In this document: positions 3,001 through 34,500 of the stretch, piece by piece
Numbering within the stretch: the first letter of the stretch is position 1
How the letters are laid out: each line of letters opens with the position of its first letter
From: Raillietiella orientalis
Taxonomy: Eukaryota
DNA length: 64,000 nucleotides
NCBI GenBank assembly: GCA_036172245.1
Contig: JAYWIR010000014.1
Span: 1,550,001-1,614,000 of the forward strand
Direction: 5' to 3'
Made by a program: the position numbers and the translations under genes
Notes under the pieces: model-generated
The model's input: only the letters and a program-made list of their open reading frames with translations
Told to the model about the DNA's origin: nothing
The model's database searches: none

Positions 3001-3416
3001 GCGCTCGCGCGCGCGGATGCGCGAGCACCTGCGCCCGAGGCAGGAAGCGTCTCCTCGCACGAGAATCCACGTCGCTTCCCTCCGTCCCCAGCCCTTCGCG
3101 TCCTCCGGTGAGGCCGTCAGCGCTGGCGGTCGCGCCCTGGCCTCAGGTCCGAGCCGTTCCGCTAGAAAAGTTTCGCCGCGGCTCCCGACTCGCACGGCTC
3201 CCGGAAGGAAGCTCTCGGGCGGGCAGGACGGCCTTCGGAAAGCCATCCCACCCGTCCAGCTCCACAGGGAGGAGGTCCCCGGGAAGCAGCACGGATCTTA
3301 GCGCAAGAGGTTCGAATCCTCCAACCCCTTTTTACTGCTGTTCCCTTCGGCCTTCCCCACGAACTTTCCATATCTCGGCCACTTATTGTCCCCCACCTAC
3401 TGTTGCTCGGGACCTC

Positions 3417-3452
3417 TTCCACGTGACTTTCCACGTGCCTTTCCACGTGACT
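3417..3452. repeat. 12-bp tandem repeat x3 (TTCCACGTG[A/C]CT), each unit with a CACGTG E-box
   Basis: Read directly. Associated 13-bp direct repeat CGGGACCTCTTCC at 3408-3420 and 3469-3481. Confidence 0.9.
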
Positions 3453-12400: not shown

Positions 12401-12589
12401 GAGACCTCTCCTCCTCCTCCTCCACCACCACTAGCACCACCTCTTCCTTCTTCCTCCTGCTCATTGCCGTCACCTGTTTCCATGGTTCCCCCAGAAAGTT
12501 CTGTTCCTGGCTTTGCCACGAAACAAAAAAAGCAAGAGGGTTCTGCATGTACCAAAGCATACATTTGTTTTCTTTTCTTCCCCTTCCAG

Positions 12590-12647
12590 TGGTCCGGCTT
12601 ATGTTTCTGGGCAACGAGCGTCGCTACACAATGCTAGACTTGAGAGC
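12590..12647 (+). CDS. C4orf33: UPF0462-like gene, domain 1 exon B (VVRLMFLGNERRYTMLDLRA)
   Basis: Long pyrimidine tract ending ccttccAG, donor GTAAGT. Length 58 bp and phase 1/2 are identical to domain-2 exon B. Resembles VVEAFFLNDITEQYLEVELCP. Confidence 0.72.
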
Positions 12648-15600
12648 GTAAGTATTGCATCCTTCCATCTGGACCTTGGGCAAAAAACCTCTCCCAACCA
12701 CCCCTGATTTGGTTCCGACCGCTGCGTGTCCGGCACTGCGGAGAGCAGCCACCAACCCCATGCTCCTGCCATTCCATTGGATCGCTGGCTAGAAGGGACT
12801 GCCGCCTAGGACGACGGCGAAGAGGTGTTGGTAGGCAGCCGCCTCCACCAGGAAGGGGTGGGGCTTCTCCCTGGCTGTGGCCGGACCGCGAGCGCACACA
12901 TTCCGTCAGAATATTCCCTAAATGGGTGGGGAAAGCCTTCCCGATCCTGTTCTGGGCCTTCCAGTCTTCTCCGTCGAGCAGATTTGGGAGGGGGGGGGCA
13001 GTGGACGGAGGAGGGAAAGATCTTGTGAATCCTCTGCTCGGCTCAGGGACCGGATCTTGCCCCACAACGTGACCCCAAAGTGCACCGCTTCTCCTCCCCC
13101 CTCCTTTCTGGATGTGTTCCCGGGAGCTGCATCCAGGGAAAAGCGCGTCGATACGCTACAGTGCTTCCCTCTCCTCCTCCCCCTTCAGGGAAAACATTCG
13201 TTCGGGTTTCTCGGCGACGCGGTCGCGAGGCGGCGTTGACGGCGCGCGCGAGCGCGCCCGCATTCACTTGCAAGGAGCAACAAAGGTGAACGAAGGTCAT
13301 CCCGAGTTCTCGGTCTGGAATCGACGGCATCCTGCCGTAGACCACTTCGCTCATCAAGACTCCGAGGGTCCCGCCTGCACGCGCACATCTGCTCTGGGAT
13401 CGCCCCTCCCCCCTCTCCCCTCTTCCCCGCCGTTGAGGAGTGCACGGATCTCCCACGATCCGTTCGGGCCAGCGCCAGTGGCGCCGCGGTGGAGGGGAGG
13501 CGAGGGAACCGAGGGGACATCCGGGCGTGGATCTGGCGGGGACCCCTGCTCTGGAGATGTTTGGTCCCGGACAGGCGAGGTGCCTGGGACCATCACATTC
13601 GCCCGCACGGTGCGTCGAGACCCGCAAGGCGAAGCGTCTGCTTGCGCGTCCCGGCCGCGGGTTTCCCAGCAACGGCAGTTCCCTCTTTGCTTAGATCGAT
13701 CGGTTCGGGAAGAGCGGTTGGCGGGGAAGAGAGGTCACGTCAAGAGAGCGCGCGGGCGCAGTGCACATGAGAGCTTCTCTGGACGCGGTCCTGACGCACG
13801 CGCGGATGCGCGGGCAGTGACGTCAACGGTCGAGGTTTGCGGCGGCGGCCGCGGGCTGTCGCCACTGGGAGTCTAGGCCGGCGTTGAGCAGGAAGGAAAG
13901 CGCCGAGTCGATACAGTCGGGATGGGAACTTCGCGCGCGGATAGGACGTCATAGCTCCCTCCTCCTCCTGCTCCTCCCGCCTAGCTGCCTGCGCTTCCCC
14001 GCACCTCCAGACGGAGGCGCGATAAGTCGAACCCCGTCGCGCGTACTCTCGAAACGCGGCGGTTGCCTGATGACGCGCGGCGGGCGACGAGGCGGAGGAA
14101 TCGATCTGCGAGGAGTGGGTGAAGGAGGAGAGGGACGGGGAGAGGAAGAGGAGGGAGGGGGGCAGGGAAGAGGCAACTCCCGCACTGTCGCTAGCTCCAC
14201 ATCTCTTTGTAAGAGCGCCGCGCTCTTCTCGAGGCAGGCGGCACTCCAACCCCCGTCTGCCCTCCTAGGGGGATGAGCGGCCCTCTGCCCTCTCGGCAGG
14301 CAGGGGAGGGAGCACCCTCGCAGGCGCGCTTGCAGCGCGTGCCGCAAGCCATCTGTGAATTCCCTGCTGCCGTTCTTTCGGGTTTGATGTCGGCTCTGCG
14401 CGGATGCTGGTTGACCGAGGAGGAGGAGGGGAAGGGGGAAGGAAAGCAGAGGAATGAGCGGCCTTGTCTCCGTGGCTGATCTGAAGCGGGCACCATCTAG
14501 AGGCAGGAAGCTGCAAAAAAAAAATACCTCTCCTTCTTGTCCGCTTCCCCCGCACGGAAGGGAAGCTGACCCTGGAGCTTTTGTTGTTCGAGTCCACTCC
14601 TCAACGCGTGGCCCAGCCGGGGAGCGGTGGCCTCTCGTTCGCCTGCATCTTTCCGAGTCGAACAGTGGTCCTCCGGATGCGTCCTCCGGAAGCGGCGCTG
14701 AAAGGCGGACCTTCCAGGTCGCTTCCCCGTCGCTGCGGATATGCCCTGGAGTGCGCCCGCATGTAGCCGACACCGACGCTCCTCCACCGAGTTTCCATGG
14801 GGATCGGATGGGTTCACCCGGCTGAGCCGGGAGCGAAAGCCAGAGCGGTGCTTTCCGAAGAGTGAGGCCGCCTTCCTCGCGTGTACAAAGCTCCCGCGAG
14901 CCGGTTGAGCTGCAGGCGGGGTCGATCGCTCAGAGCTGCCGTGCTTCGCGGAGGAGGGATGCTGCAGCATCTACGCAGGGCAGTTTCGAAATGTTTGACG
15001 CGCATCATCTTGCAGGGAGAGCCGCTGAATGCCAATGAACGGAGGGGCTGGAACTGATCTTTCCAGCTCGGGAGAGAGAGAGAGAAAAAAAGGCAATTCT
15101 TCCATTGGGAGGAATCGTAACCCTAGGGAGTGATCTCTTAACTCGAGTTACCGTGCAAATCGCGCCTGAGAGCACCCCTTAGGAAACATCCGGAACAAAG
15201 TTGAGTCTGACCTCGGATGGTGCAAAAAGAGAGAGGCTCTTTCGGCTCCATCTATCCTCCTCGCTACTGCTTCTTGCATTCTTTAACTGATTCCTGTCCC
15301 CCACCCCACCCCGGCTCACGGCTGTCTTTGGAAAACCGGACGTGAGCCATGGTGGCAAAGCAGTGGTGGAAGTCTGCCATCCCGCATCCAGCTGCATCCT
15401 GCCCTTCGAGATCGATAAACCGCATGACCGGTTCGGGAGCGTTTTGTTTAGAAGAGAATATCTTCTGGACCTCGAGTGGTTTTCTTGGGATTCCTCGTCT
15501 TGGACAAAGTATCCCTCTCGGAAGGATTTGAAGTGCTCGTTGGGAAGCTTCTGCATACTGATGGGAGGAAGCTGGAGGGGGTGGGAGCGCAGTGACCCCG

Positions 15601-18600
15601 TGCAATAGCAAGAAGAAGCATTGCCACGTGCCCAAGAAGATCTCTCCCTCTGAGTTTTGGCTTCTCGCACACATGACATCTCAGAGCCTCCTAGCGGATC
15701 CTCGAGGCATCGTATCTCATGGTACCACCGAAGAGCCTTCAGTTCTTTCCGCTTTTGTCTTACTTCTTCAAGGGACAGCTACTGCAAGGTCTCGGTCCTC
15801 GCCTAGGCATCTATGCAAATACTACTCTTCATATCACCGGACATATGACGCAGCTGCAGCCGCAGAAGAGAGTCAGTCGATCATTTATTTCTTCAACTCC
15901 ACCTTGCAGAACGTGCGCTCTCCGGAAAAGACCGGAAGGAAAGGTGACAGCAAACGATGCAACCGGTTTGGTGGTCTCGGGATCGTTCCCTTCAACTGGA
16001 CGGAACTGGACGGATGGACCAAGCTCGTCTACTCGGGCATCTCTTCACGTCTAGGGACAAGCCAGAGAAACACAGGAGACCAGAATCCGCCGGGTTTTCC
16101 CCAAGATCCAAGTCAGGAATTGAAGAAGAGATCAGGGTGCTGCTCCTTCTCGCAGAACAAAGGAAAGAAAAACCAGAATATCCACACGCATCTCAGCAGC
16201 TTCGTCGTGAACACCAACCAATAGGGAACAGCCCGAACCACTCCCTGAAAAGGTGCTCGCGCTCTCCAAAGTAATCTATGCATGCTGCAACCCCCTCACT
16301 GCATCCCATTGACCACTTTCTCGGCAAAGGCAACATCGAAGAAGGATGCACCCGACTCAGACAGGGCTCGGGAAGCGCTCAGGACCAAGTTGCTGTGCTT
16401 CCTAACCCGTCATGCCCACGGACGTCACATCCTCGTGCGAACGCACATCCCAGAGGCAGGAAAACAGAAACGCTAAAGGATGCGCGGCACGCTGCATCTG
16501 CTAGAAAATTTCCAAAATTCTTCGCGGGAATTTGCATCAGGCTTTGTTTCTGAAACCAATTTCTTCTTCTTCTTCTCTTCGAGTAATAATTTCTGGATTT
16601 TCGTCAAGAACCAGCCAGAGTGGGAAATATTTTGATTTTATGGAAAATTAACTGTTGGAAAAACATGGTGCAGATACACGGGTGGCCCATGATATACGGA
16701 GCACCTTCAGGATCATAATAGTAGCGTCGCAGGATGCAAGAAGAGCATTATGGAGAAATGCGTGCCATAAGTCGTTACGGCGCGCCAAACAATCTCATAA
16801 CTGTAGCAGCGTCAGACCGCATTACCACATCGATCACTTGATAGTGGTCATGTCTCGAGGCGGGTCTGCTTTGGACAGATTTGCATACACAGTTTCGATC
16901 TGCAGGGAGAGAGGGCTATTCGCCTCGCAAAAAGGCACCGAAAGTGATCCTGACAACACTGGAAGTTTCCGCTTCAGAAGTTCCCACTTCTAATGGAAGC
17001 ATGGCCGGCGGAAGGATGTTTGCTCACCGGTCTTCTTGCTCGGAGTGGCTCATTTCCCGGGTGTTGCTGGTGCCGCGAGACACCAAGAACAGAAAGGCGG
17101 AGGTGTTTCCTCCTCCCTCCTGGAACTGAAGGCCGTCCCTACTTTTTTCGCGTGGCCAGGGTACTTGTGTTTGCTCTGCCAAGGTTTAGAAAAATGCACG
17201 ACGAAGGGCGCGCACTTGTTCCCTATTCCTCTTTTCTGCTGGAAAACCCCTGGACCCATCTCGAACACTCCACGAGTACGTCATTGTGCTCGTGGAGTCG
17301 TCACGCTCCCGGAAGTTGCCGACGGGACCGTCATCCATTCCTGTATCTGCTGCGCCGCAGTCGCGCGGTTTCCATCACACACGCGTAAGCCTCTCTTGGA
17401 TCTTCCGATCCCGCTCAACAAATCTCGGCCGCCTTGCCTACTCGTGCATACTCCGGAGATAAGTACTGCTCCTTGCAGTTCTTGCACTCACGGAGGAGCT
17501 GGGAGCATCCGTTCTTGCCTCTTCCCACACAGAGAACTTTCATTTAAGCCATCGGGTTTCATCAATAATCAAGTTTCATTGGTACTTGGTCGCCATTGGT
17601 TCGAAATCTGGAAGCGGTGGAGTCTGCTTCTCCCGCAGGATGCGAATTCCACTTCTGTCGCTCTGAGCCTTTGGATACTGTCAATAAGCGTCCAAAGAAC
17701 TCATCTGGGTAATATATATTTTTTTTACTCCTGTTTCAAAGATACAAAGATTCTCTCCCATCTTCAGCGGGAGTTCGGAACGGCTATCGCTAAACATCTC
17801 TCCATCCCTGCTGCTCCTTTTCATCTCAATTCCTAATTCCTTTGGCGCCCTCGTGCTTGAGGAGGCATTGCACTTCCCGGCTGCTTCGGGAGACCCTCCT
17901 TCACCCTTGTGGCATCGCGGCGAACCTGCCCTTTCGTTCGGCTCTCCTCACGGGCCGCGCAAACGTTGGAAACCGTTCCTGTTTCCCTCGACAGCTTGTT
18001 TCTTTTCCGACGAAACTGCAACGCTTGATGAGCTTTAACGATGCAGCCAGCTGGTGAACCGGACCTTCGGAGCTTTCCAGGGCCTCATCTCCGCGCCTTT
18101 GCAGACCACCGTCCTCTGCCAGACTTACAATCGATGGATCGCTGATTTATTCTTTCGCGGGACTCGTTCTCGCTCTCCGGGGCACTCGAAAACGACGTCT
18201 GACCTGCTGATGCGACCTGGGCCTTGATTTCTTCCTTGAGTTGCATCTCTCCGTGCTCCTCAGGTGACGAGTTTCCGCTCCATCCTGCAGTTTCAAGAGA
18301 ACCTTGCCTTCCCTCCTCCCCTTCCCATCCGATGTCGTCTCGCTGCTGCCTCGCCGGTCCGGAGCATGCCTGGAAAGCTTCCTTTTCTGGTGCTTCGAGC
18401 AGACTGCTTTCCTGCCGTCGACAGAAGGCATAGAGATTTCCAGCATCCAGGATCTCTGAACAGCCGTTTGCATTCCGAGTCTTCCGCTCCCTTGGCAGCG
18501 CCGTGAGACACAACTGGCAGACTCGTTGGATTTCTCCTTGGAGATTTTTGGACCACTTTCCAAATTCTCGCTGACGAAAGCCCCGCTTCCCCCCTCTCGC

Positions 18601-21600
18601 GTAGTGAAAGAACCTTAGAGTAGATCTCATCTCCTCTTCCACATCTTCCTCTCGGAGGATTAAGGCGGCACGAGAAACGGTGGCTCGAGCTCGAAGCGGG
18701 TAGCTTCCCTGGTGGCACAACGGAAAGGAAGGCACCTCAAACCATCTGCTTTCGCATCCGCGCTCCTTTCTTATTCCTCACACAGTGGCTTGGGCCACGC
18801 TTTTGCCGCATGCCAAGGAGTCGTGCGGAAGATCCGTGCGACCTCCTTACCGCGGAAAAATGACGAGGGTATGCTGCCAAAGACGCAACGAGATGATTTG
18901 CTCCACGAAGAGAACTAAAACAGCTGCTCGCTTCGGATTTCTGGGAACTCGAGGGAGGAAAGGCATGGGGATTTCTCTTTTCCTTCTGCTACCCTCCTGA
19001 AGCTACGACTCTGCCCTCCCAGACCACCATCTGAGCGCGGGAAAATTCCAACGTGCGAAAAACTCAAGAGAACGGAAAAAGGCACAGCCGACCTAAAATG
19101 GCGAGTCTCTTCACGACCCACACGTTCTCCCAACTCCACAGTTCGGATGACAAGGAGAGATAGGGGCTTCCCGCGTTCAAATAAACTCGCGCTGCGCGTC
19201 ATGGAGTTCACTGGAGACAAAACTCTCCCCAAGAATCTTCGACCTCCCAGCTTTTTGAAAATGGACTCCCATAAGCAGACTCTGCAAGAGAGTGGCCGGT
19301 CCAAATGAGGCTTCTATCTCCGCCCGCTTTCTGCTCCTCTTCATGGCATTCGAGGTCGAGATCGCTTCTCAAACCGGAAGGTGCAAGATGAGACCGCTCG
19401 ATAAGAGTGTGTTACCTATGAAACTCCTCCAGTTTCCGCTTTCGACGAAGAATCCTGTACGCAGCTCCGACTTCCCCGTGTTTTGAACACAGTGCACATC
19501 TTCCCGTGGAGACGATGAAAGCTCCATTACGGGTAACGAGCCAAACTTCTGCCTGCCGAATCAAGCTTTAAGATGTTCCCATGGAAACGAAGGAGATTAA
19601 AGAAGCAACAGGGAAAGCAGGAGGAACAATGAAGGTCGACTTCTCACTCTACCTCACTTTCCCCCCGAAACTGCATGGCGCTCGTTCGCTTGCTCAAGAG
19701 AATTTCCTGATGCAGCTCTCACCAAAAGGGGTGAATTCTTTCCGAAGCCGTCGGAAAACTCCTTGATTCTTCTAACTGGTCGATCTAGGAGAGGGAGAAC
19801 GCGAGAAATCACTTGAAGAAGGGAGGATGCTGACCCATCACCCTGACTCGTCTGCAACGCAAAATCCTCCTAGCCAAAAAAGGGAAAGAGGAAGGAGAGT
19901 CCTGTACCTGCAAAGACTGGCTCCCCGGGGATTAGGGAAGCAGGAAGATCGTCTCATGAGGATCTCTTCTCTTTCCTTTTTTCACTTCCCTTCGCCTTCC
20001 CCCACCTTCCAAAAAGCGAGGTTCCCTCCGGGCGATAATTTTGTCCAGAGCTTGCTTCTGAAAGTCCTAGGAAGAATGCATCCCGCCTTTTTCATTGGAC
20101 GTTCCTAGAGCGTCTTCTCTGGTGTTTTCGTGCTCTTCTTGAAGAATGGAAAGAAGAGCAAGGAGTCCTCCTGCAGTGCTCGCTATCATGGCCTCTGACC
20201 CCTGTCCTCTCTTGAAGGCGGGGAGGAGAGGTCAACCAAGGTGAACGACCTTGGTTGAAAGCCTTCAGAGCCAAAAACGACTCTTTTTTTTTTTTTTTTC
20301 TTGTGGAGGCCAAAGGGATGCATCTGAATTTCCGTGAGAGAACCCTTCCGACCCTTCCGGACGAGGTGTCCATCCACGGAAAGCCTTTTCTGTTCCCCAT
20401 CGCGCCTCCGGGTTGAAATCCCTCCAGGCAACCTTACGAGTGGGAACTGATCCCATAAACAAGTGGAGGGTTCCCTCAGGAAAAGAATTCTACATCCGAG
20501 GATTCCTTTCCGCCCCTTCTAGACTCCTCCTTCGTCCGAGGAACGAGGATCGGGATCAGATGGAGGAAGTTTGGGAGACACGTGACTTCTCTACTCTCCA
20601 CAAGCGAGGCCTCGTTGCGCCGCCTTTTAGTCTCTTCCAGAAGGGAACTCGCGTCTCTCTTAATCTCAGTCCTCGCAGGGGCAGTCGGATGACTGCTTCC
20701 TTTGGTAGAGCCGTGGACAATGGTGCTCCCCTGAATTCCCAGTGCCTCTCATAGCGTGCCAAAGTTCCCTCTCGTCTCGGTAGCTAATCCAATGACCGGC
20801 TGGCTCCCAGCAGGCAATACCCTGCCCGTCGGGTCAAGTACAGGTACCTTCGCTGCCCCTTTCCCAGGATGATGATGGTGGCGCTCTTGTGCTACCGGAT
20901 GGCACGAAAACCCCTATGGAAGATTTCCAACCTCCACCCTCTTCGCTCCCCTTTCTCAGAAACAGGAGAGTCCGCTAGTTTCATTCTTCACTCCTTTTCT
21001 GGAGGACGCGCATCCTGGAAAAGGGAGGTGTGCTGTCTAGGGAACCCATGACGAGGATGGGCAGGGGAGCTATAGGGTGCGTATGATCGGAGGTTCCCAC
21101 TTCCATCGTTCGGGTGCGGCACGTTGTCAGCGGGCATCGAGGAGCAGGAACGCATCTCCTCGAGCTTCATGCAAAGGGGAAGTCCAGATTCTTCTTCTGG
21201 ATCTCCTGTCATCCCCTCACTCTCCCTTACCCCCATCCCCTTTGAAGGAAGTCCTGGAGCGCGAACTGGCAGCGGCGTGGACAAAGAGCTGCAGGAGGCT
21301 GCCGGTCGATTCAGAGATCCTGAGGACGGACGGAGACACGTCATCCCCGAGAAACTCGCCGCCTTACCAAGCGTCCAGGGTCAGAAGAAAGACTTCCAAG
21401 GAACCAGCGAACACTTCAGCGGACCAGTAGAGGATGAGGGACGTTGATGAGTTATCCGACCAGGACTCGTGAGCAGAGGGCGAGTCTCGTCGCGTGCTCC
21501 ATCAGAAAACTGGAAGTGGGAAAGGGAAGAGGACGATGAAGAAGTTTTCCCTCGAAGAAGGGAAAACTTCTTCAGCGCTCCTACTGGTTTTCCCTCCTCG

Positions 21601-24600
21601 ACTTACTCTGTTTTGCCTCTCGGACAATCAGCGCTTCCGTTCCCGACGCCTCCGATCAGAGGAGTTGAGAGGCATCCGGAAAAAAGACCCGTTTCGGAGA
21701 CTCAACAACGCCCTTCTCAGGGATCTTGAGCCCTGCCACTCCTGTTTGAGCCCTGTTGCCCCCAACCAGCTTCCGGCTGTTAACAGATTATTCAAGCGCA
21801 CTGGTTGCCTGGACGACGCAAGGGAAACTTTCCTTGTGCCGCGAGTTGAGATCTCAAAGCAGCCACGAGCAACCACGCGCGACCCCTTGTCGAAGAGACA
21901 ATCAGCAGAAGCTGACAAAGTGCGAACGGGGGTGACTCCCTGTCCCAACGCACGGAACCCTGCTTTCGGCGTGTCTCTTTAACTCAGTCAGGGGCACACG
22001 AGATGGGCGCGCGCGTGAACCGTACCAAGGTGTCCCTTCGATCGTCACGTGACCCAGAAGCACGGAACTCACGAGTCGAAGGGAAAAAACAAAACAAAAC
22101 AAAAAAAAATGAAACACTTCCCGAAAGCGCTCCTACTGGTTTCTCAGCAGAAATCGGCGGGTCCAACCAGCGCTGCGACCGCTTGCTGCTACATGGGGTC
22201 TTGACGGGAGCGTTTTGTCGCATCAGCGGCTCCGATAAACAGGGTGTCCCGAAAACAGGTATGCGCACTTTGATCATTAACGAAAAGTGGCGAGACAAAA
22301 AACAAAAGGAAAAGCAGCAACAAAAACTAAAAACAAATGCAAAAAAAAAAAAAGACGTCTATGGCGGTGGAGAGGTCTGTTCGCCTCGCGAGCGCTAGAT
22401 GGTGCTGAGGCTCTGCGCCCTGGTATCGCTCAGAGCCTCAGCGTCCTGATCAACGGGTGCCCGTTAGCGAGGCGAGTTCCCGTTGATCCAAGAGGAAGGA
22501 ACAGGCCTCTAACATCGGCGTGGATTGTAGAGATCTGATGGAGAAATTCAGGGACGTGAAAGAGGCAGGAATACCGCTGTGGGGGAAGTCCAGCGCAGGC
22601 GGAGCCAACCACGCCAAGGTTGCGCGGTGAGTTTTTGGCTCGGGACGTCTCGGAAGACTCCGCGGGCATTCCCCACACCTACTGATGGAAACAGCGGTGA
22701 GACGCGTTCCCTTGCTCACCGAAAAAGGGACAGCCGTCTAGCGAGGCTGGGATCTACGAGAACCGGTGTGCACCGGTCGTGCAGGCTCCCTTCCGGGAAC
22801 TCCGTGTTGCTAGCGTCGCCTTCTTCAAGGATCCATGTCGTGCTAGACTGGGTTTAATGGGCCGCACGGAACGCGTCGAAAAAATGAATATTCCGACAAT
22901 TCCATTGTGAGATCCGACGAAAACGGCTTCCCATCGAAGAGGAGCAGTCGAACCTGGCAGCTGCTCGTGCCCGGCGTCCTTCGAAGGTCTCGTGCGATCG
23001 GAGAAAGAAGGTGTGGATCCACGTGGAGTAGCAGTGTCGTATACGGTTTTCTTTCCAAGGATGCGTGAGGTCCGAACCAACGTTCTGCAGATTCGACCCT
23101 TTGGGTCCTCGCGAACTTTGCGCATGGACGTACGGAGTTGTACAGAGACCGTTCTCATTTCGATGGGAGGTATCCTGAGGGGGAAGAAGTGCCTTCGTGC
23201 AGGTGGAAACGTGCCCTGGCGTGTGACAAGATTCCTTCTCGCTGGACGAGAATCTCGAGTAAGGCAGGAATCTGCAGCAGCAAGGCCTCAAAAACAGACA
23301 AGAGAAGATGCGACGATCAGTTGAGGACGGTATTTGTACCGATGCTGTACAGTATCACCATACAGCAGCAGCCACCATTCGATAAAGATCAATCTGGATT
23401 CGCTTCCTTATCTACTTATTGACACAAAGTCTCCGCAAAAAAAAAGAAGAAGAAGAATATTCCCTTCGGTTGGAACGTGTCGTCACACGTTCGGCGATTC
23501 CTGCACTTCTCGAATTGTGGTCGTTGGGAACTCTGCTCCGAAGCCGACGACCTTGCGTTCTGCCTACGGACTAGCAGCTCTTCGAAGTCCGCCGGCCCAG
23601 GCCAGCAAAGGGAAGATTATCAAGCAGAGCAGCGTAGTCTTTCTTCCTCCCAGAATCAATCGTGCGCATCCAGAAACCGTTCTCCAGCACAGAGGAGATT
23701 TTGGCCACTTTTTCTCGTCTGCTGCGCCCTTGAATCCTTCCTGCAGTATAACGAAAGAAAGGCGCACGGATCAGGAGCCGTGTGGGCGCTATCTAGATAG
23801 ATTCGTTGAAAGTCATTGTCAGGTTATCTCTCTGTCTTTTGCGGAAAGCAATTCGCTTCCGTCGGCACGCAAAATACCGAACACCTACGTGGTACTTTTG
23901 TTCCTTGGATTCTCGTGCCACTGTCCACGTCCCGATTCGCAAAAAAAAACAAAAAAGAAAAAAGGGGGGAAGGGAGAAGGAGGAGAGAAAAAAAGCGTAT
24001 CCACAGCCTCATCACCGTGTTTCAAGCCAGACGAAGTTCACCTGGTGGAGTTCACCTGGTGGCTAAGCGATGAAAGTCGGAAGCGCGAATGGCATCGTTT
24101 TCTTCCTCTTTTTTCTTCGTCCTCTCATTTGTTCTCTACGCGAAGAGGAAAACGAACACGCATCAAAAGGCTTTCTCGTTTGGGAAGAACCAACGCTCGG
24201 AACTAGGTTTACTCCTTTTTTTTTTTATGTCGCATCTGTCAGCTGACGACCAACACGGAAACACACGAGGTGCCCGTCGGTGGGCACCGTTGTGCTTTTC
24301 AAGCCAAGAACCCGTTCTTTCACTGCTGTGCCAGCGAACCTGAAAAGGGATTTCCGCTCGGATGTTCCGTCTCTCCAGACGACTGGAAATGTTTCCCCCG
24401 GTTGGAGTTCGTTACCTGACAACGGGAGGGGAAGGGGGGGGGGAGAATCTCGATCGATACCCGGTAGTTTTTGCAAACCGAGGGAGCATTGGCAACTGCG
24501 AATGTGGGTCTCAATTTGGAAGACGTGACCTACTGGAGACCGAGGAGGCCGAATCTTTGTATCCGCGCCAGAGAGTTACCCATCGGCCACCAACCATTCC

Positions 24601-27600
24601 AAGAATGATCGGGTCACCGATACCTGCATGAGTTCTCTCCGAGACCGATAGGTAGCGCGCAAAGCGGTGCCCTCCAGCGTTTTCCGAAGGCGTAACATTG
24701 GAAGTGACGCGCAAGAAAGAGATCCACACTGATGGAAGATGTGGGAACCGTTTCGTCCTTCCTCTGTCTCCCTCCTAAAAAAAAAAAAAGAAAGAAAAAA
24801 AAAAAAAACTCGGAAGTCTCTCGCTCGAGGCTGAAGCATTCATCGACATTCTCACTGTGGTCACCTCGCGCAGATCCGACCCTTCTAACGAGCTGCAAGG
24901 GGAAAAAGGAAAGGTCAGAACCGTCAGCCAGGACCCGCGCAACTTTTCTTTCGCCTCCTCCCCCTTCCCCTCCCTCAGTCTGTTCGTCCGGTGGCGCAAA
25001 TCCACCGGAATGCGTTCATCGGCTCGGGTCTGGCTGCAAAAGTGGGGAATGGAGGGTGAGGAAGGGCTTAGCCGAGCCGGACTCAGTGCGTTCCATCTGC
25101 CCCTTTTTCTCCAGGGACGGCACCTATGGAGTGTCACTGCTGAACGGCTGGGAGAACACCATCCAGGAGGGATTGACTCTGGAGTATCTGAAACCGACCC
25201 TCAACGGAAGCCACTGGTGGTCGGAAGCCCACGTGCCCATCCAGTTCTTCCCTCCCAACGTCACCCGTTTCAACGTGTACGTCCATCATGGGCACGGACG
25301 CGCCAAATACATGGCGCTTTTCCCTGTGACCGGGATAGGAAAAACGGGCTTGACGCCTAACATGTGAGTAGATCAAGCTCCTGCGAAACGAGCAGACGGT
25401 GCACCTGCATCGCCAAGTGGCCCCGCGCGGAACCTTGGAAAGACCTCCTCGGCGTCAGAGGTCAAGCGGCAGCGAACCTCGGATCCGGCGGGAGTTGCCA
25501 CCCGGTCACACCGGGGCATGGGTCCGGCGGGAGCGAGGGCGGAGAGAGACCCGCGCAGTCGTGTTCTACCCCTAGGAGAAACCAGGAGACCGCGTCTCGA
25601 ATCGAAACCCGTGCTCCTCATGAAGCGGTAGTCTCTCCCGAAATTTCGGACCTCCTGCCTCACCGCAGAGCCAAATGCAGGGGACCTCGACAGCAAGGGA
25701 ACAGCAGATTTCTTGCGCTTTACCCGCTGCCCGATCTGGTTTGGTTTGCCGTCGGCCGTGCCTACTCAGAGGATCGCAAGCTGCTTCCCCTCTGGCGACC
25801 GTTGGCACCTTCCCTACTGTGAATCACGAGTGGGACCGTCATCATCGTTGGCAGAGCAGTTGGCACTTGGAGTAAGCTCCGTTCCCCAGTGCCGTCCGGG
25901 TAACCAAGGAATCTGCCTCCTACCTTCATCCGGGAGAAAAGAGGATGACATTGGTTAGCATGAACCTTGTCTTCTGCCCGGCAGCCTTGTCTCCCACTAC
26001 CAGCGTCTCCCATTGTTGGTTCGAAAGCAGCAAGGTCGAGAAGGTTTCCTTTCGGTTTCCGGATGCCGGGGATGACCCATCTTTTTTGTGGGGATAATGC
26101 CTCTTTTTTTTTTTTCCCCCGCGGATCGCTTAGCAGGTTTGCGTGGTCCATCCAGCTGCCTCATCCTTGACGCGCAGTATCCTTCAAACGATGGCGGCGT
26201 GTATCAGATGATAGCACGGCGAGATAACACGGCGAGATAGCACGGCGAGATTCGAAATGGGCGATTGCACAACGATTTCAAAGAAAAAAGAAAAAAAAAT
26301 TGAGCTTGCGCGTCTTGGACCAGCTCCAAGGATGCGGTCAAATCCCATTGGCTGGCGCCGAAACCACACTTCTGCTTGACAGTGGAGGTGTCCGAATGAA
26401 GCGCCCGCTGCTCGTCTCCAATGAGTTATAGACGCGGCAGAATCCTGAAGCGGGAAGCTGAGGAGAAGAGAGGGGTGAAAAAGAGGGCAAGGACTGCCGC
26501 AACTGCGCAAGTAGGATCGAGGCAGGTGGTCGCTTCCGACCCACCCGAGGGACTGGATCCCTGTCCAAGAGCTTTCTGCCTAAGCGCTCGCGCGTGGCTA
26601 CAGAATCCGAGGGACGCTGAAGAAGGAACAAGGAAGCTGCGTGACGCAACATCCGCCTCGAGGAAGCTGGCAGTTTCCAGCGCCGGAGACCGGTTGAACT
26701 CGGCACCAGCCGCAGACGGCTCTCCCACTGCCGAAGTGGCTCTAGGAGGTCGCTCCACGCGCAGGGATCAAGGCGCTTCAAGGAGCCGTTTGGCTATCTC
26801 CACCAAAAATCCGCAACCTCCTAGGCTTCAGCAGCGATCTGCAAAAAAATCACCAGTGGAGGAGCCTCCTTCGCAGGGTGACCTTCGGGATCCTGGGGCA
26901 GGATTAGCTGGTCGCCTCTCTGGGAGGGAAAACAAGGTGGGGAGGGAAAAGAGGGCTTCTGCATGGCACAGCTCATCGCGCCGCAATCGTCAAGTGAACG
27001 GACAGGACGAGTAGGCGCGCCGCGCGATAAATCTCGGCGCGAAATGCCGTTTACCCCCGCTCGCGGAGCCTTCGCCCGCCCTTGCATCGCCCATTCCACC
27101 CATCGAGCGAGTTTTCCGTGAGGTCGCGCTCGCCCACCTGGGGAGTCCATCCGCACGGAAGAACGGACGCGCTCGGCCCCGCCCACGCGTCTCGGCCGCT
27201 TGCTACGCATGAGGAACGCGACCGGCACGAGTCGGCCGCCGAGCCGGCATGGGAGCTTCCCACCGCGCCTCCTCCCTCCTTCCTTCCCGCGGCAGCTTCC
27301 AGCGCGGTGGTGAGGAGGCACGATGCTCTTCCTGAGACCGGGCGCGAAGGGAGGAACGCGCATCCCCGTTCCTTCCTTCCGAGTGAGCCTCTTCCTTCTC
27401 CTGGAGCGACAACGTACGGGCAGGAGCCGCTGCCTGTTTTCTTTTCCCTCTCTGCCTCTCCGGTCACCCGACCCAGGGCTGAGCTTGCGCCGCGCGCGCG
27501 CTCTCGCGTCCGAAGCGAGCGCAGCCACTGATACGGAACATCCTCCGACTCGGCGGGTACCATCCCTTCGGTCCTCCAGCCGGAGGGTAGCATAACTCTC

Positions 27601-30600
27601 GTGCCAACCAACGAGGTCCGGGTCGCGTGTGCTCGGCAGAGGTCGAACCGGCGGCAACTTCAGTAGCGAGTGGAATTCCCGACCCCTGGACTGGAAACGA
27701 CCAGAACATCGGTTCCTGCGAAGGATACGGATCCGCACTTTCCCTGAGAGAGGTAGGAGGATTGCGAGTGGAACTGAGGAGAGTACGAGACGAGTTCGCG
27801 AACGGGATGGAATCTTCGAGGCAGCTGGCCCGCAGTCTTCTCCCTCGCTGAAGGTCCTCTCTCCCTCTACTCTCCTTGAAAGCCCGACGAGCCGGTCCTC
27901 AGCCCCCGGGCTGGCAGTTCTCCCTGGTCACCTCTCGGATCTACTCCGAGATATACTCCGAGGAAGACGGGTGGGAAGGGGTCGAGTCTGCAGCTTTTCC
28001 TGCCTCGCCCGGCGGCGAACCCGCGCTCCTTTCCGATGGAGCCTGCAAGGGTTCGAAGACCTCTCGACGTCTCGTCGGACCCGAGATGCTTGGATGAGCC
28101 CGTCGCCGGGGAGTGTTCGGGTGGTCCTGACTCACCCAGACGGCGGCTCGGAAGGTGTCCTGAGGTGAAAGGCCGAATTCCAGAAGTGCTTTGGCCCCAC
28201 GGTCAGGTTCCCTTACGGTACATGGGAGACGTCCTTCACTCCGCTCTCGTGACCCGACGGACTCCGGGGCTTTCGCTAGCGGAAGCGAGAAACATCGCTG
28301 TGCTTCCAGATCGGGGAAAAACAGCTTTTTATCTTGGACCCCATAGGGAGAAGGCACGATGACCAGGAAACTGCTTCCTTTCCTTCTCTCTTCTTTCCTC
28401 CCCATACCTTTCCATTGGTCGGCGCTCCCTTTGGGTGCCAGGCACACACGCCAACGCCTCCTCCGCTGTCGGCCGAGGCGCCGTGAGACTGAGGGAAGCG
28501 ATGCCGCGGGATTTCCCAGAGCTACCTGGTGCCTTTCGTGATACCGTCTCCTCCTTGGCGCCAGCGTGTCTGCCGCCACATATGGCTGACGACGGCCGTC
28601 GCGGCAGCAGCACCGAACCACGCCGAGTCCATCAGAGGATGCAGGAGATACGCAACCTGCTGCTTCTAGTTCTTCCGCCGGAGAACGCGACCTGCTCTTC
28701 TCAGCATCCCCCGTTGATCTTCACTTCCGGATTCTCCATCTCCGCACTCTCGTTCTTCCGGATGACCTCTTCCTCCGAGAATCCAGCATCTCGCGTCCCG
28801 ACAGGAGCGAAGTTTCAGTCTAGTAAGAGGACCACGCGAAAGGGGAGCGAGGAGACCCTCGTTTAGCCTCAGCGCCACCCCTTCTTCGAAGATTGGATTC
28901 CCTGCTTCACATATCTTCGTCCTGGAACCGGAAGAAGCGGTACTCACCTGCTGCCGATGGTCCCCTGGATGTATGAATGAGTCAGCAAACCTGATTCGAG
29001 TCCCAGGCGATGATCATCGAATTCGACGTGATGCTGGAGGTGGACAAGGAACGGAACCGCCATGCAGCCACCGTTCACAAGCTGGAACGGATCGGAAGGA
29101 TGTGGTGGTTCGCTTTTGTCTCTGTACAAGCATCCTCCAGGAGTATCCGATGGCAATGGCTAAAGAGACGGCAGGTCCCAATCCCCTTGTCGCTGCCGAC
29201 GTTGTGAGAGGACAGCCTGAGATCATGGTCTAGAAAGGGAGAGGCTAGAGGTGCTTTAGCGAAACTCGTGGTCGTCATCACGAAAAGTCCCAGTAGCTCA
29301 GGCGGGGACACCGCACAGCCGGTGCCTGGGTCGCCGGACCCAATTGAAACCCCTTCATTGACAGCGCGCGTTGCTGAACGCTACCGCCATCTCGCGGCGA
29401 GCGGATTGGGCGATATGGGGGGGGGCGAGGAATCGCACCCCGAGACTCTTCTCGAGGGCTTGCTATATTTTCTTCCATCGTCATCAGCCGATGGAAGAAA
29501 TTCCCTCCGGACAGAGAGAACTGAGGAAGAAGGGTCGGCCGTTTCAGAGGAAGTCCAGGGTTCCTCCCACTAGAGGACACTCTTCTGCACTTTCCGAATC
29601 CTTCAGGTACAGGAGGAGACGACCCGCGTTGCTCGTTTTTTTTCCTCCTCACGCTTCCCTGTCCGCTCCTTTCTCATCCAGCTCTACCCTCCCTTGTCCT
29701 CTGCGGCCTCCGCTGTCGCGCGTACACATCCTCTCCTTGAACTGATGAACTCAGGAACGGTGGTCTCAGCGCAGTGCAGCAAAATCGGTCCGGAGATGAT
29801 CCCTGCGAGACATCTCGAGAAGCTGCGCAGCTCACGGGCCGCCACATCAGACATGCCACCCACTAGGCGCGGTACGTCCCGAACTCGTGTCGAAACCACG
29901 GAGGAACTCCAACGCCGTCGTTGGTGTCGCGTCGGTCGGCGCCACCGTCGGCACGGCACTCGTGTGGGCACCAGCAACTCTGAAAGGAAATCTCTGAGAG
30001 ACTTCCCGGTCGTCAGGAGAGGTCCGCCGGGAGAGCTGAGTGTTGGCGCAGCATGGAGGCAGCAGGAGAAAGGCAGGGAAGGGGTGAAGGAAGAGAGACC
30101 ACCAGTCCCGGATAGAGGGAACCAGCAAGAGAAAGAAGGGCTGCTTGCTGGTGGTGGGCCTGCGAGGGTGCGCCGTTCCACGGTTGGGGGGAAGGTGCGG
30201 GGAAGAGTGGAAGCTGTTCGGATGGAAACGAAAACTTTGGGGCAAGGCCGCTGCTGCTCCCATTCCTTGGCAGTCTCGGCGTCTACCTGGCGAGGGAAGA
30301 AGAAGCCCTGGTCGTTCGTCGCATTCGGGCTTTGGGCTCCGCTGCGCACTCCTCCTCCTCCTCCCAACTCCCCTCCTCCTTCCTCTCCGTGCTCTGCTGC
30401 TCCCGCGGCGGAAGCACACCGGACGTCCTGTTCATTCCCCCTTCTGCTCCCCAGCCACTGTCTACAGTGCTTCGGCGCCGTGGACTTCGAGACACTCCTT
30501 CCCGGTAATTCGCGCGGCGAGGTGTCGTCGACCTGGAAGGGAGCTCTCAAAAAGTGAGCGGGCTGCCCGGCCGGGAGCGCTCCAGATTCCCCTCTTCAGG

Positions 30601-31518
30601 AGCATCTTCCGGTTCTCTCTCCTGCGAACCTGCGACGGGGAAAACATCGAGCACCCCCCCTACACGTTTGAGCTGGAGGGCAAAGGTCGGCATGTGCGCA
30701 TGACCGTCTCGGGCCCTTGGTTCCGCGGGCCCCAGAGCCCCTCGAGGAGGAGGAGGAGGAGGAGACTGGTGCTCGGGCCGTGCGGCTCCGAAGGTATGAT
30801 CCTATCCAGGAAGGGAACAGTGTCTCCCCCTTCCAGGCGCCCTCGGTGTGTTCGCGAACGACCAGGAGCAGAGCCTGCGCGTGGCAGTGTGTCCGTAAGT
30901 TCGCCTGGGGCTGGAGGGTCGCATCCTCGGAACATACCCTCCAACCAGGGACGGACTGGAATCCGTGGAGTTCCTTGTCGACGCCGAGGTTGCCGTGAAG
31001 AAGGTTGGGTCTCTCGAGGTAGCTGAGGAGAGCACGGACGCCACCTACCGCGCGAGCGTCGAGATACCCGTGTCCTTCTTCCCTCCGGGGGTATCGTCCT
31101 TTCAGGCACGTGTGATGCACTGGGAGGACGGTGTTCTGGAGATGGACTGCTTCGAACAGCCGGACCACTCGACGGAAAGGGCCAGGTATTCGACTTGGCG
31201 TCGCGAGACGTGGCCCGCAGGAGGCGGGAACGAGGACCGCAATCCCACCGCTCCCGTTTTCTGCGAGCCGGCGAGTTCGCTGATGCCGATCCTACACGCA
31301 GGGAGACGTCCGCTTGTCTTTTTAGAGGATGCGTCCAGTGCCGCGGCGGCATGAACCTGTCCTCCGTGATCAAGGAGAGCGAACACAGAGCGGCGCTCGT
31401 GTGGCAGCTGAGGAAGAGCACAGCACTGCCCGTGTTCCAGAAGACGCCGCTGGAAGCCTTCGTGGTGCAGTTCGCCGCGGGGCTCCTGCAAGCTGCTGCG
31501 CGGAGATGGGCGGCATGA
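12590..31518 (+). CDS. C4orf33: Tandem-domain UPF0462/C4orf33-like protein, 5'-partial; join(12590-12647,25115-25363,30455-30553,30600-30793,30837-30894,30949-31185,31326-31518), ~362 aa in window
   Basis: Seven GT-AG bounded exons join in frame with no stops. The translation aligns colinearly, twice, with human C4orf33 as I recall it (FKIEHTWDG..HEP; ISAPFF; VVEAFFLND..EQYLEVELCP; HGQHLVLLL; LPWSYFPPNVTKFN..IHG; YEALYPV; PDFHCLEYFKSFNFNTLL..SDLW). Confidence 0.82.
25115..25363 (+). CDS. C4orf33: UPF0462-like gene, domain 1 exon C (DGTYGVSLLNG...VPIQFFPPNVTRFNVYVHHG...YMALFPV...TPN)
   Basis: Acceptor tttttctccAG, donor GTGAGT, phase 2/2. FFPPNVTRFN and YMALFPV match family motifs. Codons mostly end in G/C. 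Confidence 0.88.
26210..26251. repeat. 13-bp tandem repeat x3 (GATA[G/A]CACGGCGA)
   Basis: Units start at 26210, 26223 and 26236. Confidence 0.88.
30455..30553 (+). CDS. C4orf33: UPF0462-like gene, domain 1 exon D (HCLQCFGAVDFETLLPGNSRGEVSSTWKGALK)
   Basis: Acceptor ctgctccccAG, donor GTGAGC, phase 2/2. Matches HCLEYFKSFNFNTLL..SDLW. Confidence 0.85.
30600..30793 (+). CDS. C4orf33: UPF0462-like gene, domain 2 exon A (SIFRFSLLRTCDGENIEHPPYTFEL...VRMTVSGPWFRGP...GSE)
   Basis: Acceptor ctcttcAG, donor GTATGA, phase 2/1. Matches FKIEHTWDG..HEP..ISAPFF. Confidence 0.85.
30745..30765 (+). repeat. (AGG)6AGA coding triplet repeat (Arg7)
   Basis: Read directly inside exon 30600-30793. Confidence 0.9.
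30837..30894 (+). CDS. C4orf33: UPF0462-like gene, domain 2 exon B (GALGVFANDQEQSLRVAVCP)
   Basis: Acceptor cccttccAG, donor GTAAGT, 58 bp, phase 1/2. FAND-QEQ-L-V-VCP matches FLND-TEQYLEVELCP. Confidence 0.85.
30949..31185 (+). CDS. C4orf33: UPF0462-like gene, domain 2 exon C (DGLESVEFLV...TYRASVEIPVSFFPPGVSSFQARVMH...)
   Basis: Acceptor ccaaccAG, donor GTATTC (weaker), phase 2/2. IPVSFFPPGVSSF matches LPWSYFPPNVTKF. Confidence 0.82.
31326..31518 (+). CDS. C4orf33: UPF0462-like gene, terminal exon (GCVQCRGGMNLSSVIKESEHRAALVWQLRK + hydrophobic tail, TGA)
   Basis: Acceptor cttgtctttttAG, phase 2. Parallels exon D1 (CxQC...N/D-hydrophobic...W). An in-frame alternative acceptor exists at 31219-31220. 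Confidence 0.72.
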
Positions 31519-34500
31519 CGCGCGGAGGCGAATGAAAGATGAGGAACCTCCCGGGTTTTTTTTTATTCCGCATCCACCCCTTACTCCCCTCATCGCCTTC
31601 TTCCTCCGGTGGCACGCGCGCGCGCGGTGCAGCTGATTGCGCCGTTCGGGAACCTTCGACGTCGTCCCGCAGAGCGGGGCTCGCCCTCGAGCAAAGGGAA
31701 GCTTCTCATCTCTCGTCCGCAGGCAAGGGGAACGGACGGAGTCTGCAGCATTCCTCTCCTCCAGGAGTTCTTTTCCTCTCTAGGGAAGTCATGGAGCTGT
31801 GGAGAGAGCACCAGGCAGGATCTCCCGCCCTCTTGGAGAGAGTGGGTCGCGGAGTCCAAGGAAACCGGATGGCAGCGTACCTTCTCTGGACGCGGGGTAG
31901 TCGGCCAGCCTTGGTGTGTGGGAAGGGAGAAAGGGACATAAAGGGGGGTCGGGAAAACGATCTCTGAAAAATGCGAAGCACAGACCCCGAAGAGCGGGAA
32001 CTCCGGAACGTAGTCGGGGATTCACTGGTGGGCGCCCACGCGGATCCCTCATGCAGGGACGCACCCTTCTTCACCCAGGAAGGAAAGGGCGAGCACGCCT
32101 CGCTCACCTACGCCTCATTTCTGGGTGGAAGAGAAGTGCAACGGTTGGGAAGATCCTGCGGGGGCAGAGCAGGCACGAGGTGGCGCGAGGGAAGTGAACG
32201 AGCTTCCGAAAGAACCTGTTGTTCCGGCTGCTACTGCCTACTCCCTGTTCCCCTGCAAGTCGAGGGAGTGCAGGACTTCCACTGGTCGGGAAGCACCAGG
32301 TCCGAGGTATCTCCAGGAGGCATCCCTGCTGGACGGATTAGGGTTGCGGGGAAAGTGCGAACACCCTCGGCAGCGGAGCGGGAGGCAAGGAGGAATCGCT
32401 TCCCGTGGCCTTGGGGCGTGTCCCTCGGAGCAGTAGCTATATCGGGCAAAAGTAGGGCTGAGAAGCGCGTCGCAGTGAGGGAGGGGGAGGGGAAGGGGGT
32501 GCTGCGCATTTCGAGAACCCACCTGCAAAGTTTGGATGCGACCTCGGCGTGACCTTGTGGAGTTCAAGGTCTTTCGCGTGGATGGGAGAGTGGAGAAGAG
32601 TCTATGGGAGGAAGGAAGAGGGCCTCTGCATCCCCCTGCCCTCTCGGAAGACACAGGATTCTTGGAACTCTTCCTCTGTGCTCCTTTCGTGCGCGCTCTG
32701 CCGGAGACCTCGGCGACGACCTTTCCTTCCGGTCCCGAGTTCCTCCGGGCTATATTTTTTTCGGATCTGTGAAAGGGTTCGGTCTCGGATCCTCCCGGTC
32801 CGCTTCCCCAATGTCTTCCCGCTACCCGCTCCTCGCTTCTGCCTCTCACGACGCGGTCGCCCTCCCAGGAAGTCCTCCAGAAGTTCTGCCGCCACAGGGA
32901 GATCCCCTTCCTCTGTAGGACGCCACTCAAACCCTCATCCCGAGGGATGCTGCATATCCTCGCCGCGCTCGGGCCGCTACTCCAGCGGACCGGAAAGCCG
33001 CCGGTTCCCTGCTGCTGCCTTTCTCTTCCCGCCCACTCCCTCCTCTTACCGACGGACCGTCTTCGCGCGGGCGTTGCTCCCTCTTCACCCCTCCCGCAAT
33101 CTCCATCTCGTTCCTCCCTCCCGCTTTTTCCTTCTCCCCTCTCCTGAGCCCCGCCATCCAACCCCGGCCGCCGCTCCTGCAGGTTCAGGAAGTAGCTGTG
33201 CGCGCCGCTTTCGAGTTCCCCCTTCGCTCCGCCCGTGTCTTCCGTGGGACGGAATCCCCTGCTCTTCCTCGGCTGCGCCTGTCAGAGCACGGAAGACTTC
33301 GAGAAAAACTCTTGTTGATCTTCATCCTTTTCCCGGAGGCAGAAGAAAGAGAGAGAGAAAAAAAAACTGCTGACTCCGGCAAAGCTTCGCACACTGTATG
33401 CTGTTCGCATCGCTCGCACGTGTTCCCCGCGGGCACGAAAGCGCTCCGCCGCGCGACGCGGACCTCGAGGCAGCCTCCCGGCCTCTCCGCTTCCGTCGAA
33501 AGTGCTTTGCGGGCCACCCCGAGACACGGAAAGCCGGGTTCTCATCGCCGTTTCCAGGGAAGACGCGCCGAGCTTCCGAGAGCACGCCGCCGTCACTCAG
33601 CAGGGGAAGCGGTGCGGGGTAAGAGGCTTCAGGGCGACTCTCCTGCCTCCTCGCGGCACCATTCGAAATGCGCGCGTGCCGCCCCCTCTCGAGGCCGGGA
33701 GAGCAGCAGACGATGACGCTCCGGGCCAAGGCAGCAGTCGCAGGGAGAGCAGCGGCGCGCGGGGGGGAGGACGCTCCTTCCTGAGGAGGGCGAATCCTGC
33801 GCGCCCCAAGTCGACGTCGCGGCCGCGAGACACCCGCGGGCAAGCGCTCTGCCCTGCGAACAAAGGCAGCCCCACCTACACCAAGTGGTGAGTCTGAAAG
33901 CACACCCCTGGAGGACTTGGGAGGAGGGCAGAAGTAAGGGACCGGGACATGCACGCGACTCCGTAGATTCGCGGGCTTGCCTCCCTCCCTTTTTCCCGGG
34001 CGCCGGCAGGGGGACTCTGAGAGAAGCGAAGGAACTGCGGAACGAAGCGAAACCGAGAGACCCCAAGGCCAACCTGCTGCTGCCCCGGGCGGAGGCTTCC
34101 CAGGATGCGCGACCTTCTGCCCTCGTGTCCGTCACCTGGGGTTCCTCCGCGCGCCCGTCCGACCTCCCCCAGAAGGTGGCAGTCGTGAGAGTTGGCAGTC
34201 CACCACCCTTCGGCGGGGGCAGGAAGTGTTCCCGCTGGGGAAGTTGCGCGCTTCCTTGTCGCCCATCTCCTCCTCCCTCTTCGGTTTCTTCCTTCCTGCT
34301 TCCTCCTGTCCTTCTCTTCCTTTTCCTCCACTTCCTCTTTCCCTTTCCCCTTCTGACAAGAATTTTCGCTCGGATGCGCCGCGAGGAAAGCACGAATTCC
34401 CCTCCGCTCGTCTTCCACGCCATGGGGAAAGAACGAGAGGTGAGCCCGTTCCTTGCAGCCCTGGATGATGCCAGGGAGGCTGGCTGGATCATCACCTTCG

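Follow-up and report, generated by a model that had tools for sequence, protein, structure and literature searches.

Can two copies of a gene that lie head to tail on one strand be read as a single two-domain protein, and what would then become of the stop codon that ends the first copy? This question is raised by a locus of Raillietiella orientalis, which lies within a stretch of 64,000 nucleotides (nt) taken from NCBI GenBank assembly GCA_036172245.1 (contig JAYWIR010000014.1, positions 1,550,001 to 1,614,000 of the forward strand); this stretch is hereafter the window, and all positions are given in its coordinates. A preliminary description of the window had proposed that seven exons between 12590 and 31518 encode most of one UPF0462/C4orf33 domain, joined in frame to a complete second domain that ends in a hydrophobic tail. 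C4orf33 (UPF0462) is an uncharacterised single-domain protein of ~200 amino acids (aa). Here, we call the upstream group of exons unit alpha and the downstream group unit gamma, and we designate the exons of each unit by type, i.e., A1 (the first exon), E5, E6, and E7.

Two tandem coding units with one exon plan

The seven phase-compatible exons stood up to inspection: all have GT-AG borders on the plus strand (Table 1), and their concatenation reads uninterrupted through 361 codons to a terminal stop. In exon order, the introns measure 12,467, 5,091, 46, 43, 54, and 140 nt. Unit alpha extends across 18 kb and encodes 135 aa without an N-terminal exon, and its exon E5 is preceded by a long pyrimidine tract followed by cag. 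Unit gamma has four exons and encodes 226 aa.

Table 1 Positions of the coding units, their exons and introns, and other features of the window
Feature	Positions	Strand	Details
Unit alpha	12590-12647, 25115-25363, 30455-30553	+	three exons; 135 aa
E5-alpha	12590-12647	+	58 nt; ccag acceptor, gtaagt donor; phase 1 in, phase 2 out
E6-alpha	25115-25363	+	249 nt; ccag acceptor, gtgagt donor; holds FFPPNVTRFN
E7-alpha	30455-30553	+	99 nt; ccag acceptor, gtgagc donor; C-x-x-C motif
Putative 46-nt intron	30554-30599	+	GTGAGC donor overlapping TGA stop; acceptor ttcccctcttcag
Unit gamma	30600-31518	+	four exons; 226 aa
A1-gamma	30600-30793	+	194 nt; tcag acceptor, gtatga donor; first exon of second unit
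E5-gamma	30837-30894	+	58 nt; ccag acceptor, gtaagt donor
E6-gamma	30949-31185	+	237 nt; ccag acceptor, gtattc donor; holds FFPPGVSSFQ
E7-gamma	31326-31518	+	193 nt; ttag acceptor; TGA stop 31516-31518
Introns inside gamma	30794-30836, 30895-30948, 31186-31325	+	43, 54, and 140 nt
C-x-x-C motifs	30456-30476 and 31327-31347	+	HCLQCFG (E7-alpha) and GCVQCRG (E7-gamma)
Candidate exon A1-beta	29010-29142	+	ATG 3 nt past an AG; GGA/GTATCC donor, phase 1
AATGAA	31531-31536	+	first poly(A)-signal-like hexamer past either stop; then T run
AF4/FMR2 (AFF/lilliputian-type) gene	49181-64000	-	C-terminal homology domain over 50100-49816, 49762-49666, 49612-49184
424-aa Ser-rich AFF exon	50661-51932	-	upstream of homology-domain exons; GC3 only 0.35

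Several lines of evidence point to a common origin of the two units. In a tblastn comparison within the window, E6-alpha matched E6-gamma with E-values of 1.5e-5 and 2.9e-4 at 28–29% identity, and a MAFFT alignment of alpha and gamma yielded 26% identity. Both units follow a common plan, in which a 58-nt exon is followed by an exon opening with GGACGG, and the intron phases are identical. The homology of the two E5 exons would be weak if taken alone (1 identity over 19 residues). Both E7 exons open with C-[LV]-Q-C, and these are the sole two matches to this pattern in bases 1–37500. The resulting C-x-x-C, whose second cysteine is not known from human C4orf33, could be a lineage-specific metal or redox site conserved in both E7 exons. 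DNA-level self-similarity within the window was limited to a single 33-nt match between AGG repeats. Given this near absence and the low protein identity, we consider the duplication to be old, and the locus is a real, old head-to-tail tandem pair of C4orf33-like coding units. Of the two-unit arrangement suggested previously, the paralogy, the single shared exon plan, and the in-frame join are thus retained, while the use of the junction 30553/30600 is only predicted.

The repeat responsible for the self-match is an (AGG)n microsatellite at 30744-30776 in A1-gamma, encoding a run of seven Arg, and its partner lies at 35453-35485 on the minus strand. No local alignment with a candidate further copy of the unit scored above shuffled controls. 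A short piece of open reading frame (ORF) at ~11041-11076 on the plus strand reads IPVEDKEFFPPG and resembles the IPVSFFPPG core of E6-gamma, with a weak codon signal; being a post-hoc motif match, it was not counted as a copy, and it may be a relic of one or the chance translation of a pyrimidine tract.

Most frames of this DNA with 60% G+C content (GC), the antisense of gamma included, contain ORFs of 200–300 aa, and an open frame is therefore uninformative by itself. We evaluated coding character through the GC of third minus that of second codon positions (GC3-GC2), using as background same-length segments drawn from both strands of bases 1–37500. Spliced gamma displayed a GC3-GC2 of 0.323, a value reached by none of 9550 background segments (maximum 0.15), and spliced alpha a value of 0.299, reached by none of 9866. 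The contrast between codon positions emerged only after splicing: gamma showed GC of 0.64, 0.49, and 0.81 at the three codon positions in its spliced form, while the three unspliced genomic frames were flat, with 0.62–0.66 at every position.

The same signature was recovered from individual exons. In alpha, E5 (0.31) ranked within the top 4.5% of background, E6 (0.31) was reached by no background segment (fraction 0.0), and E7 (0.25) ranked within the top 3%. The four gamma exons each fell singly within the top 1%: E5 with 0.44 (top 0.8%), E6 with 0.37 (reached by no segment; fraction 0.0), E7 with 0.32 (top 0.03%; its tail alone 0.21, top 5%), and A1, whose codons 1–34 displayed 0.38 (top 0.2%). 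In addition, the homologous segments can be kept in register only if the 43-nt intron supplies a +1 frame shift, and the 54-nt intron carries an in-frame TAA. Since frame shift, TAA, and codon signature all fit the spliced form, the introns cannot be dispensed with, and the spliced model is the coding one. Coding constraint has acted on both units for long, at least until recently, and gamma is coding, the codon signature excluding a chance ORF.

The junction between the units

The frame of alpha ends in ...AAA AAG TGA, and this TGA (30555-30557) sits right behind the exon end at 30553, as had been noted earlier. The G that precedes the stop, together with TGAG, makes up a GTGAGC donor: E7-alpha ends at the TGA in its unspliced form and at 30553 when the donor is used. 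Gamma starts 42 nt past the alpha TGA. The junction 30553/30600 is a canonical GT-AG pair with phase 2 on either side, and joins alpha to gamma in frame. How readily such a configuration arises by coincidence can be gauged from the stop triplets in bases 1–37500, of which 49 of 664 overlap a GTRAG donor, and 8 of 664, the alpha TGA among them, combine this donor with a pyrimidine-rich YAG acceptor 38–74 nt downstream. The phase match contributes a further factor of about one third to this coincidence estimate.

The start of gamma provides complementary information. Within A1-gamma, the codons ahead of codon 34 include no in-frame ATG, and Met is likewise absent from the ORF that extends upstream in the same frame, from 30088. 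Because the 34 coding-like codons lack an ATG, translation must enter A1-gamma via splicing from a phase-2 upstream exon, and the nearest upstream phase-2 donor is the end of E7-alpha. Signals that would end a transcript between the units were searched as eight variants of the poly(A) hexamer, none of which lies between alpha and gamma, and neither AATAAA nor ATTAAA occurs in 30400-33500. A stop codon followed by exon junctions, here three of them, exposes an mRNA to nonsense-mediated decay, and a transcript that stopped at the alpha TGA yet had the three introns of gamma spliced would thus be a target for this pathway. A separate candidate, i.e., homology between the DNA behind the alpha stop and the gamma tail, was rejected, as 76 and 171 shuffles out of 500 each reached the observed scores.

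Overall, the best single reading of the locus, to which we give slightly better than even chances, is a predicted two-domain fusion created by removal of the 46-nt intron. Specifically, the two tandem duplicates, sharing the plan A1, 58-nt E5, E6, and E7, would be transcribed as a single pre-mRNA, and excision of 30554-30599 would delete the stop and join the units in frame into a protein with two diverged all-beta modules. Retention of the same intron would instead yield the one-domain alpha product. The start codon of A1-gamma has been lost, as an AGC (Ser) stands where an ATG is expected from the alignment with a further candidate exon, A1-beta, located upstream; A1-beta itself is probably an alternative first coding exon, which would yield a 206-aa protein made of gamma only. 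As a guess at its role, the product may be an intracellular beta-sandwich binding module made bivalent through duplication, with the C-x-x-C as the possible metal or redox site.

If this reading is true, the protein would have gained a second domain in few steps, namely a tandem duplication, a stop codon whose context is also a donor, and the loss of the downstream start, and a family of conserved animal proteins of unknown function would have a member with two modules. The two diverged modules and their common C-x-x-C could then guide experiments on the C4orf33 family. Fusion aside, the locus is an ordinary duplicated gene, and the finding is a modest one, at the level of annotation. Such a locus, with exons distributed over 19 kb and introns of 43–54 nt, will either be missed by gene finders or be split or merged in error.

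Competing readings of the second unit

Inside the 5.1-kb intron of alpha, we identified A1-beta as a coding-like candidate for an eighth exon, new to this analysis. The segment 28995-29123 on the plus strand has the strongest codon-position signal of the whole window (score 0.58), and the 44 codons that run from the ATG at 29010 to the donor at 29142/29143 display a GC3-GC2 of 0.34 (top 0.09% of background), with the signal ending at ~29142, i.e., exactly at the phase-1 GTATCC donor. A local alignment of A1-beta and A1-gamma begins at residue 1 of both, with 9 of 29 residues identical and a score reached by 10–16 of 2000 shuffles, and places the Met of A1-beta opposite the Ser (AGC) of A1-gamma. 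A1-beta had no Pfam match. Spliced to 30837, it opens a frame for a predicted single-domain protein of 206 aa, and with it included, each of the four exon types is represented exactly twice in the window. A longer form, 29010-29203, ending at a GTGAGA donor in phase 2 and in frame with 30455 or 30600, was ranked low, as 29142-29201 carries no coding signature and combinations of this kind arise frequently by chance.

The complementary exon for alpha was not recovered. The expectation that an A1 exon would be found upstream of 12590 was not borne out in 1-12589, where local alignments of A1-gamma and A1-beta against all plus-strand ORF pieces stayed under the medians or 95% levels of shuffled queries, and motif scans gave nothing convincing. 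The first exon of alpha may be too diverged to be recognised or may lie outside the window; alternatively, an old three-copy array may have lost complementary exons, or the locus may have been rearranged or misassembled. Were the assembly correct and the alpha domain nevertheless made whole, this would call for non-collinear splicing (exon scrambling or trans-splicing) in addition to a two-domain isoform that skips the stop, a combination we find hard to credit. Just upstream of exon 12590, the segment 12390-12521 on the minus strand, rich in GAG/GAA repeats, shows a strong codon-position signal of 0.52, which could reflect composition alone or mark an exon belonging to a divergent gene.

Several of these observations, along with others, weigh against the fusion. 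Besides the first coding exon of alpha missing from 1-12589, A1-beta is out of order for alpha, standing after E5-alpha and E6-alpha and before E7-alpha, and an internal promoter together with A1-beta may, in addition to the fusion or in its place, allow gamma to be expressed by itself. A1-gamma as it stands has no start of its own, an argument that loses force for the unit as a whole in view of the ATG exon at 29010. Codons 35–64 of A1-gamma have a GC3-GC2 of 0.13, matched by 20% of background, and this undistinctive second half, with its (AGG)7, might be what a decaying exon looks like. The 46-nt intron is shorter than the better-supported introns of 53–54 nt and has no branch-point motif that is clear by eye. 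The alpha stop lies near the usual end of the family's proteins, so that alpha resembles a normal stand-alone gene. Finally, the UPF0462 label is based on a motif rather than on a model score.

The most serious competitor to the fusion, which we nonetheless hold to be unlikely, is that the locus yields two separate products, alpha stopping at TGA 30555-30557 and gamma being expressed from a promoter in the 5.1-kb intron by splicing 29010-29142 to 30837, so that exon 30600-30793 would be an unused and recently disabled duplicate first exon. The features of A1-beta described above all speak for this account: its ATG (which has a purine, G, at position -3), a codon signature that stops at a phase-1 donor, similarity to A1-gamma from the first residue of both, and an open joined frame. 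The lost ATG and the (AGG)7 repeat of A1-gamma agree with a disabled exon. However, codons 1–34 of A1-gamma are still coding-like, and of the two exons they hold the N-terminal motifs that are more typical of the family. Furthermore, the pyrimidine tract at the A1-beta acceptor is poor, phase-compatible pieces running from an ATG to a donor are frequent by chance (7 combinations over 4 donors for phase 2 in the 5.1-kb intron), and the donor at the stop and the phase match would be left as a coincidence (about 7% times one third).

A bleaker account, by which gamma or the scattered alpha exons are dead relics, their frames remain open merely through the scarcity of stops at 60% GC, and no two-domain protein exists, is improbable in our view. 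It can appeal to the ubiquity of 200–300-aa ORFs noted above, to the missing starts of gamma and (upstream of 12590) of alpha, to two alpha introns as long as 12,467 and 5,091 nt although introns of 53 nt occur in this genome, and to database searches with single exons that gave no relatives. Against it stands the codon signature of both spliced units, higher than in any of the 9550 and 9866 background segments. That the six splice-site pairs are all intact at 26–29% identity implies that both units have been constrained over a long time, and the frame shift and the stop sit in two short introns, whereas a decayed copy would show them within exons. Weighing these points together, we retain the fusion as the preferred reading.

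Tail, surroundings, and relatives of the locus

The preliminary description had also suggested a product that is secreted or anchored by glycosylphosphatidylinositol (GPI) or a membrane segment. Its observations were accurate, i.e., the tail sequence, the sequons NGS, NVT, and NLS, and cysteines (eight in all) are present in the joined product, and the gamma tail runs ~31 aa past the end point of alpha. In favour of the suggestion are the three N-x-S/T sequons, the cysteines, and a 15-residue stretch in the last gamma exon, AFVVQFAAGLLQAAA, whose mean hydropathy is 1.67. It gained no support on closer analysis: the best Kyte-Doolittle mean over 19 residues is 1.21, under the ~1.6 usual for a membrane span, so that no C-terminal segment of membrane-span grade was found. 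Two Gln lie within the stretch AFVVQFAAGLLQAAA, RRWAA comes after it, and its helical hydrophobic moment is ~1.0, features that suit an amphipathic helix more than a membrane-spanning segment or a GPI signal. The three sequons compare with 1.3 expected (P = 0.13, i.e., chance level), no part of gamma is weaker in coding signature than the tail (top 5%), and, with no N-terminus found in 1-12589, no signal peptide was found. A secreted two-domain protein with a GPI anchor or C-terminal membrane segment is therefore very improbable; this judgement concerns the location of the product and is separate from the three readings of how gamma is expressed.

Downstream of the locus, on the minus strand, lies an AF4/FMR2-type (AFF) gene that provides a reference for intron size. 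Two of its exons match Pfam AFF4_CHD (E-values of 1.8e-21 and 2.2e-15) and the solved human AFF4 domain in the PDB (2.3e-12 and 2.3e-6); the 97-nt middle exon alone is too short to score. This exon is flanked by two GT-AG introns of 53 nt each (49815-49763 and 49665-49613), so that introns of ~45–55 nt are ordinary in this genome and the chief objection to those of 43, 46, and 54 nt in the neighbouring tandem locus falls away. A protein search with the 424-aa Ser-rich AFF exon returned 6944 candidates, none of which scored. Since CpG is undepleted (observed/expected 0.68–1.24 across bases 1–37000) and the AFF gene has 53-nt introns, the genome is of an invertebrate type, and the comparison with vertebrates made in the preliminary description needs adjusting on both counts.

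Base composition changes in sharp steps along the window, at 37000-38000 and in 56000-62000, with GC of ~60% in 1–37 kb, ~44% in 38–56 kb, and ~30% in 56–62 kb. CpG observed/expected falls to 0.11 in 56001-57000 and is 0.7–1.2 almost everywhere else. Pfam searches on ORFs gave 0 matches for 14 ORFs, 2 for 150 (both AFF4_CHD), 0 for 98 inside 12590-31518, and 0 for 147 in the flanks; with no Pfam match there, no transposon or other gene was seen in the long introns. A search against Rfam gave 0 matches.

Homology searches for the tandem units were run with single exons rather than spliced proteins. None of 5 exon translations matched Pfam (best DUF7268, E-value 0.35; cut-off 27 bits). The protein search with E6-alpha retrieved 16 candidates sharing words with the query, none at E ≤ 10. 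A phmmer search of 1.84 billion representatives with E6-gamma gave 5 matches at E ≤ 0.001 and 0 at 1e-10, with no family member among them: two are proteins with internal repeats, one is P0004, and two carry PKD/Ig-type and chitin-binding Pfam domains. In the ESM Atlas, the best score was 0.88, for a hypothetical protein below lead level; among metagenome loci, 168 pattern matches were obtained, none of which was confirmed; and sequence and profile searches of the PDB gave only chance-level matches (E-values of 0.019 and 1.1), with no solved relative found.

For the 82-aa fragment encoded by E6-alpha, AlphaFold2, run on a 2-row alignment, predicted five strands with a mean predicted local distance difference test of only 50.6 and a predicted template modelling score of 0.38, a low-confidence model that is consistent with an all-beta fold. 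The link from C4orf33 to DOMON or CBM9 made earlier had no counterpart among the 10 papers listed of 45 matching ones, none of which mentions C4orf33. The motif FFPPNVTRFN of 25115-25363, whose counterpart in 30949-31185 is FFPPGVSSFQ, is nearly identical in human C4orf33 and is used as a lead only; the putative assignment to UPF0462 draws on this motif and on a P-x-x-H at the E6/E7 junction.

What is reported of C4orf33 in other systems comes from screens and comparative data. Knockout of human C4orf33 in HepG2 cells was a screen hit that lowered uptake of low-density lipoprotein by ~21% (PMC8953622), human C4orf33 was a screen hit as an interferon-stimulated gene synergising with ZAP (PMC3353916), and a UPF0462 homologue was listed among positively selected families in a widow-spider transcriptome (PMC4758249).

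How, then, does the tandem locus compare with known systems? The units can be compared with C4orf33/UPF0462 in size (226 aa for gamma) and in the FFPPNVTRFN-type motif in the third coding exon, and the P-x-x-H at the E6/E7 junction can be set beside GQFDFPDFHR, a peptide that a table of PMC10142993 lists for the homologue in Saccoglossus kowalevskii. They differ from C4orf33/UPF0462 in that two tandem units can here be joined in frame, that gamma is extended by ~31 aa at its C-terminus and contains an insert of Arg7, and that C-x-x-C is present in both E7 exons.

Another point of comparison is P0004, a 273-aa protein from a library of metagenome and genome representatives, with two internal repeats and no Pfam match. 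In each repeat there is an LP[IV]SFLPPGKTRYQAFV that matches the V/IP-x-FFPP-x-x-x-F of both E6 exons, and the tandem two-repeat layout of P0004 recalls that of the locus. However, while P0004 and E6 are linked by a phmmer E-value of 2.7e-5 and by BLASTP at 47% identity over 17 aa, their similarity is limited to 17–36 residues, and P0004 may share with E6 a common beta-strand motif rather than homology, or may be distantly related to it in fold.

Proteins are known to gain domains through tandem duplication of exon blocks or genes followed by read-through splicing, as in conjoined genes or fused tandem duplicates. What sets the present locus apart from such cases is a donor overlapping the very stop codon, an intron of just 46 nt, and a junction that is predicted. 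It is nonetheless like them in layout, with two units head to tail on one strand, almost no spacer between them, a downstream start that has been lost, and a donor whose use would remove the upstream stop.

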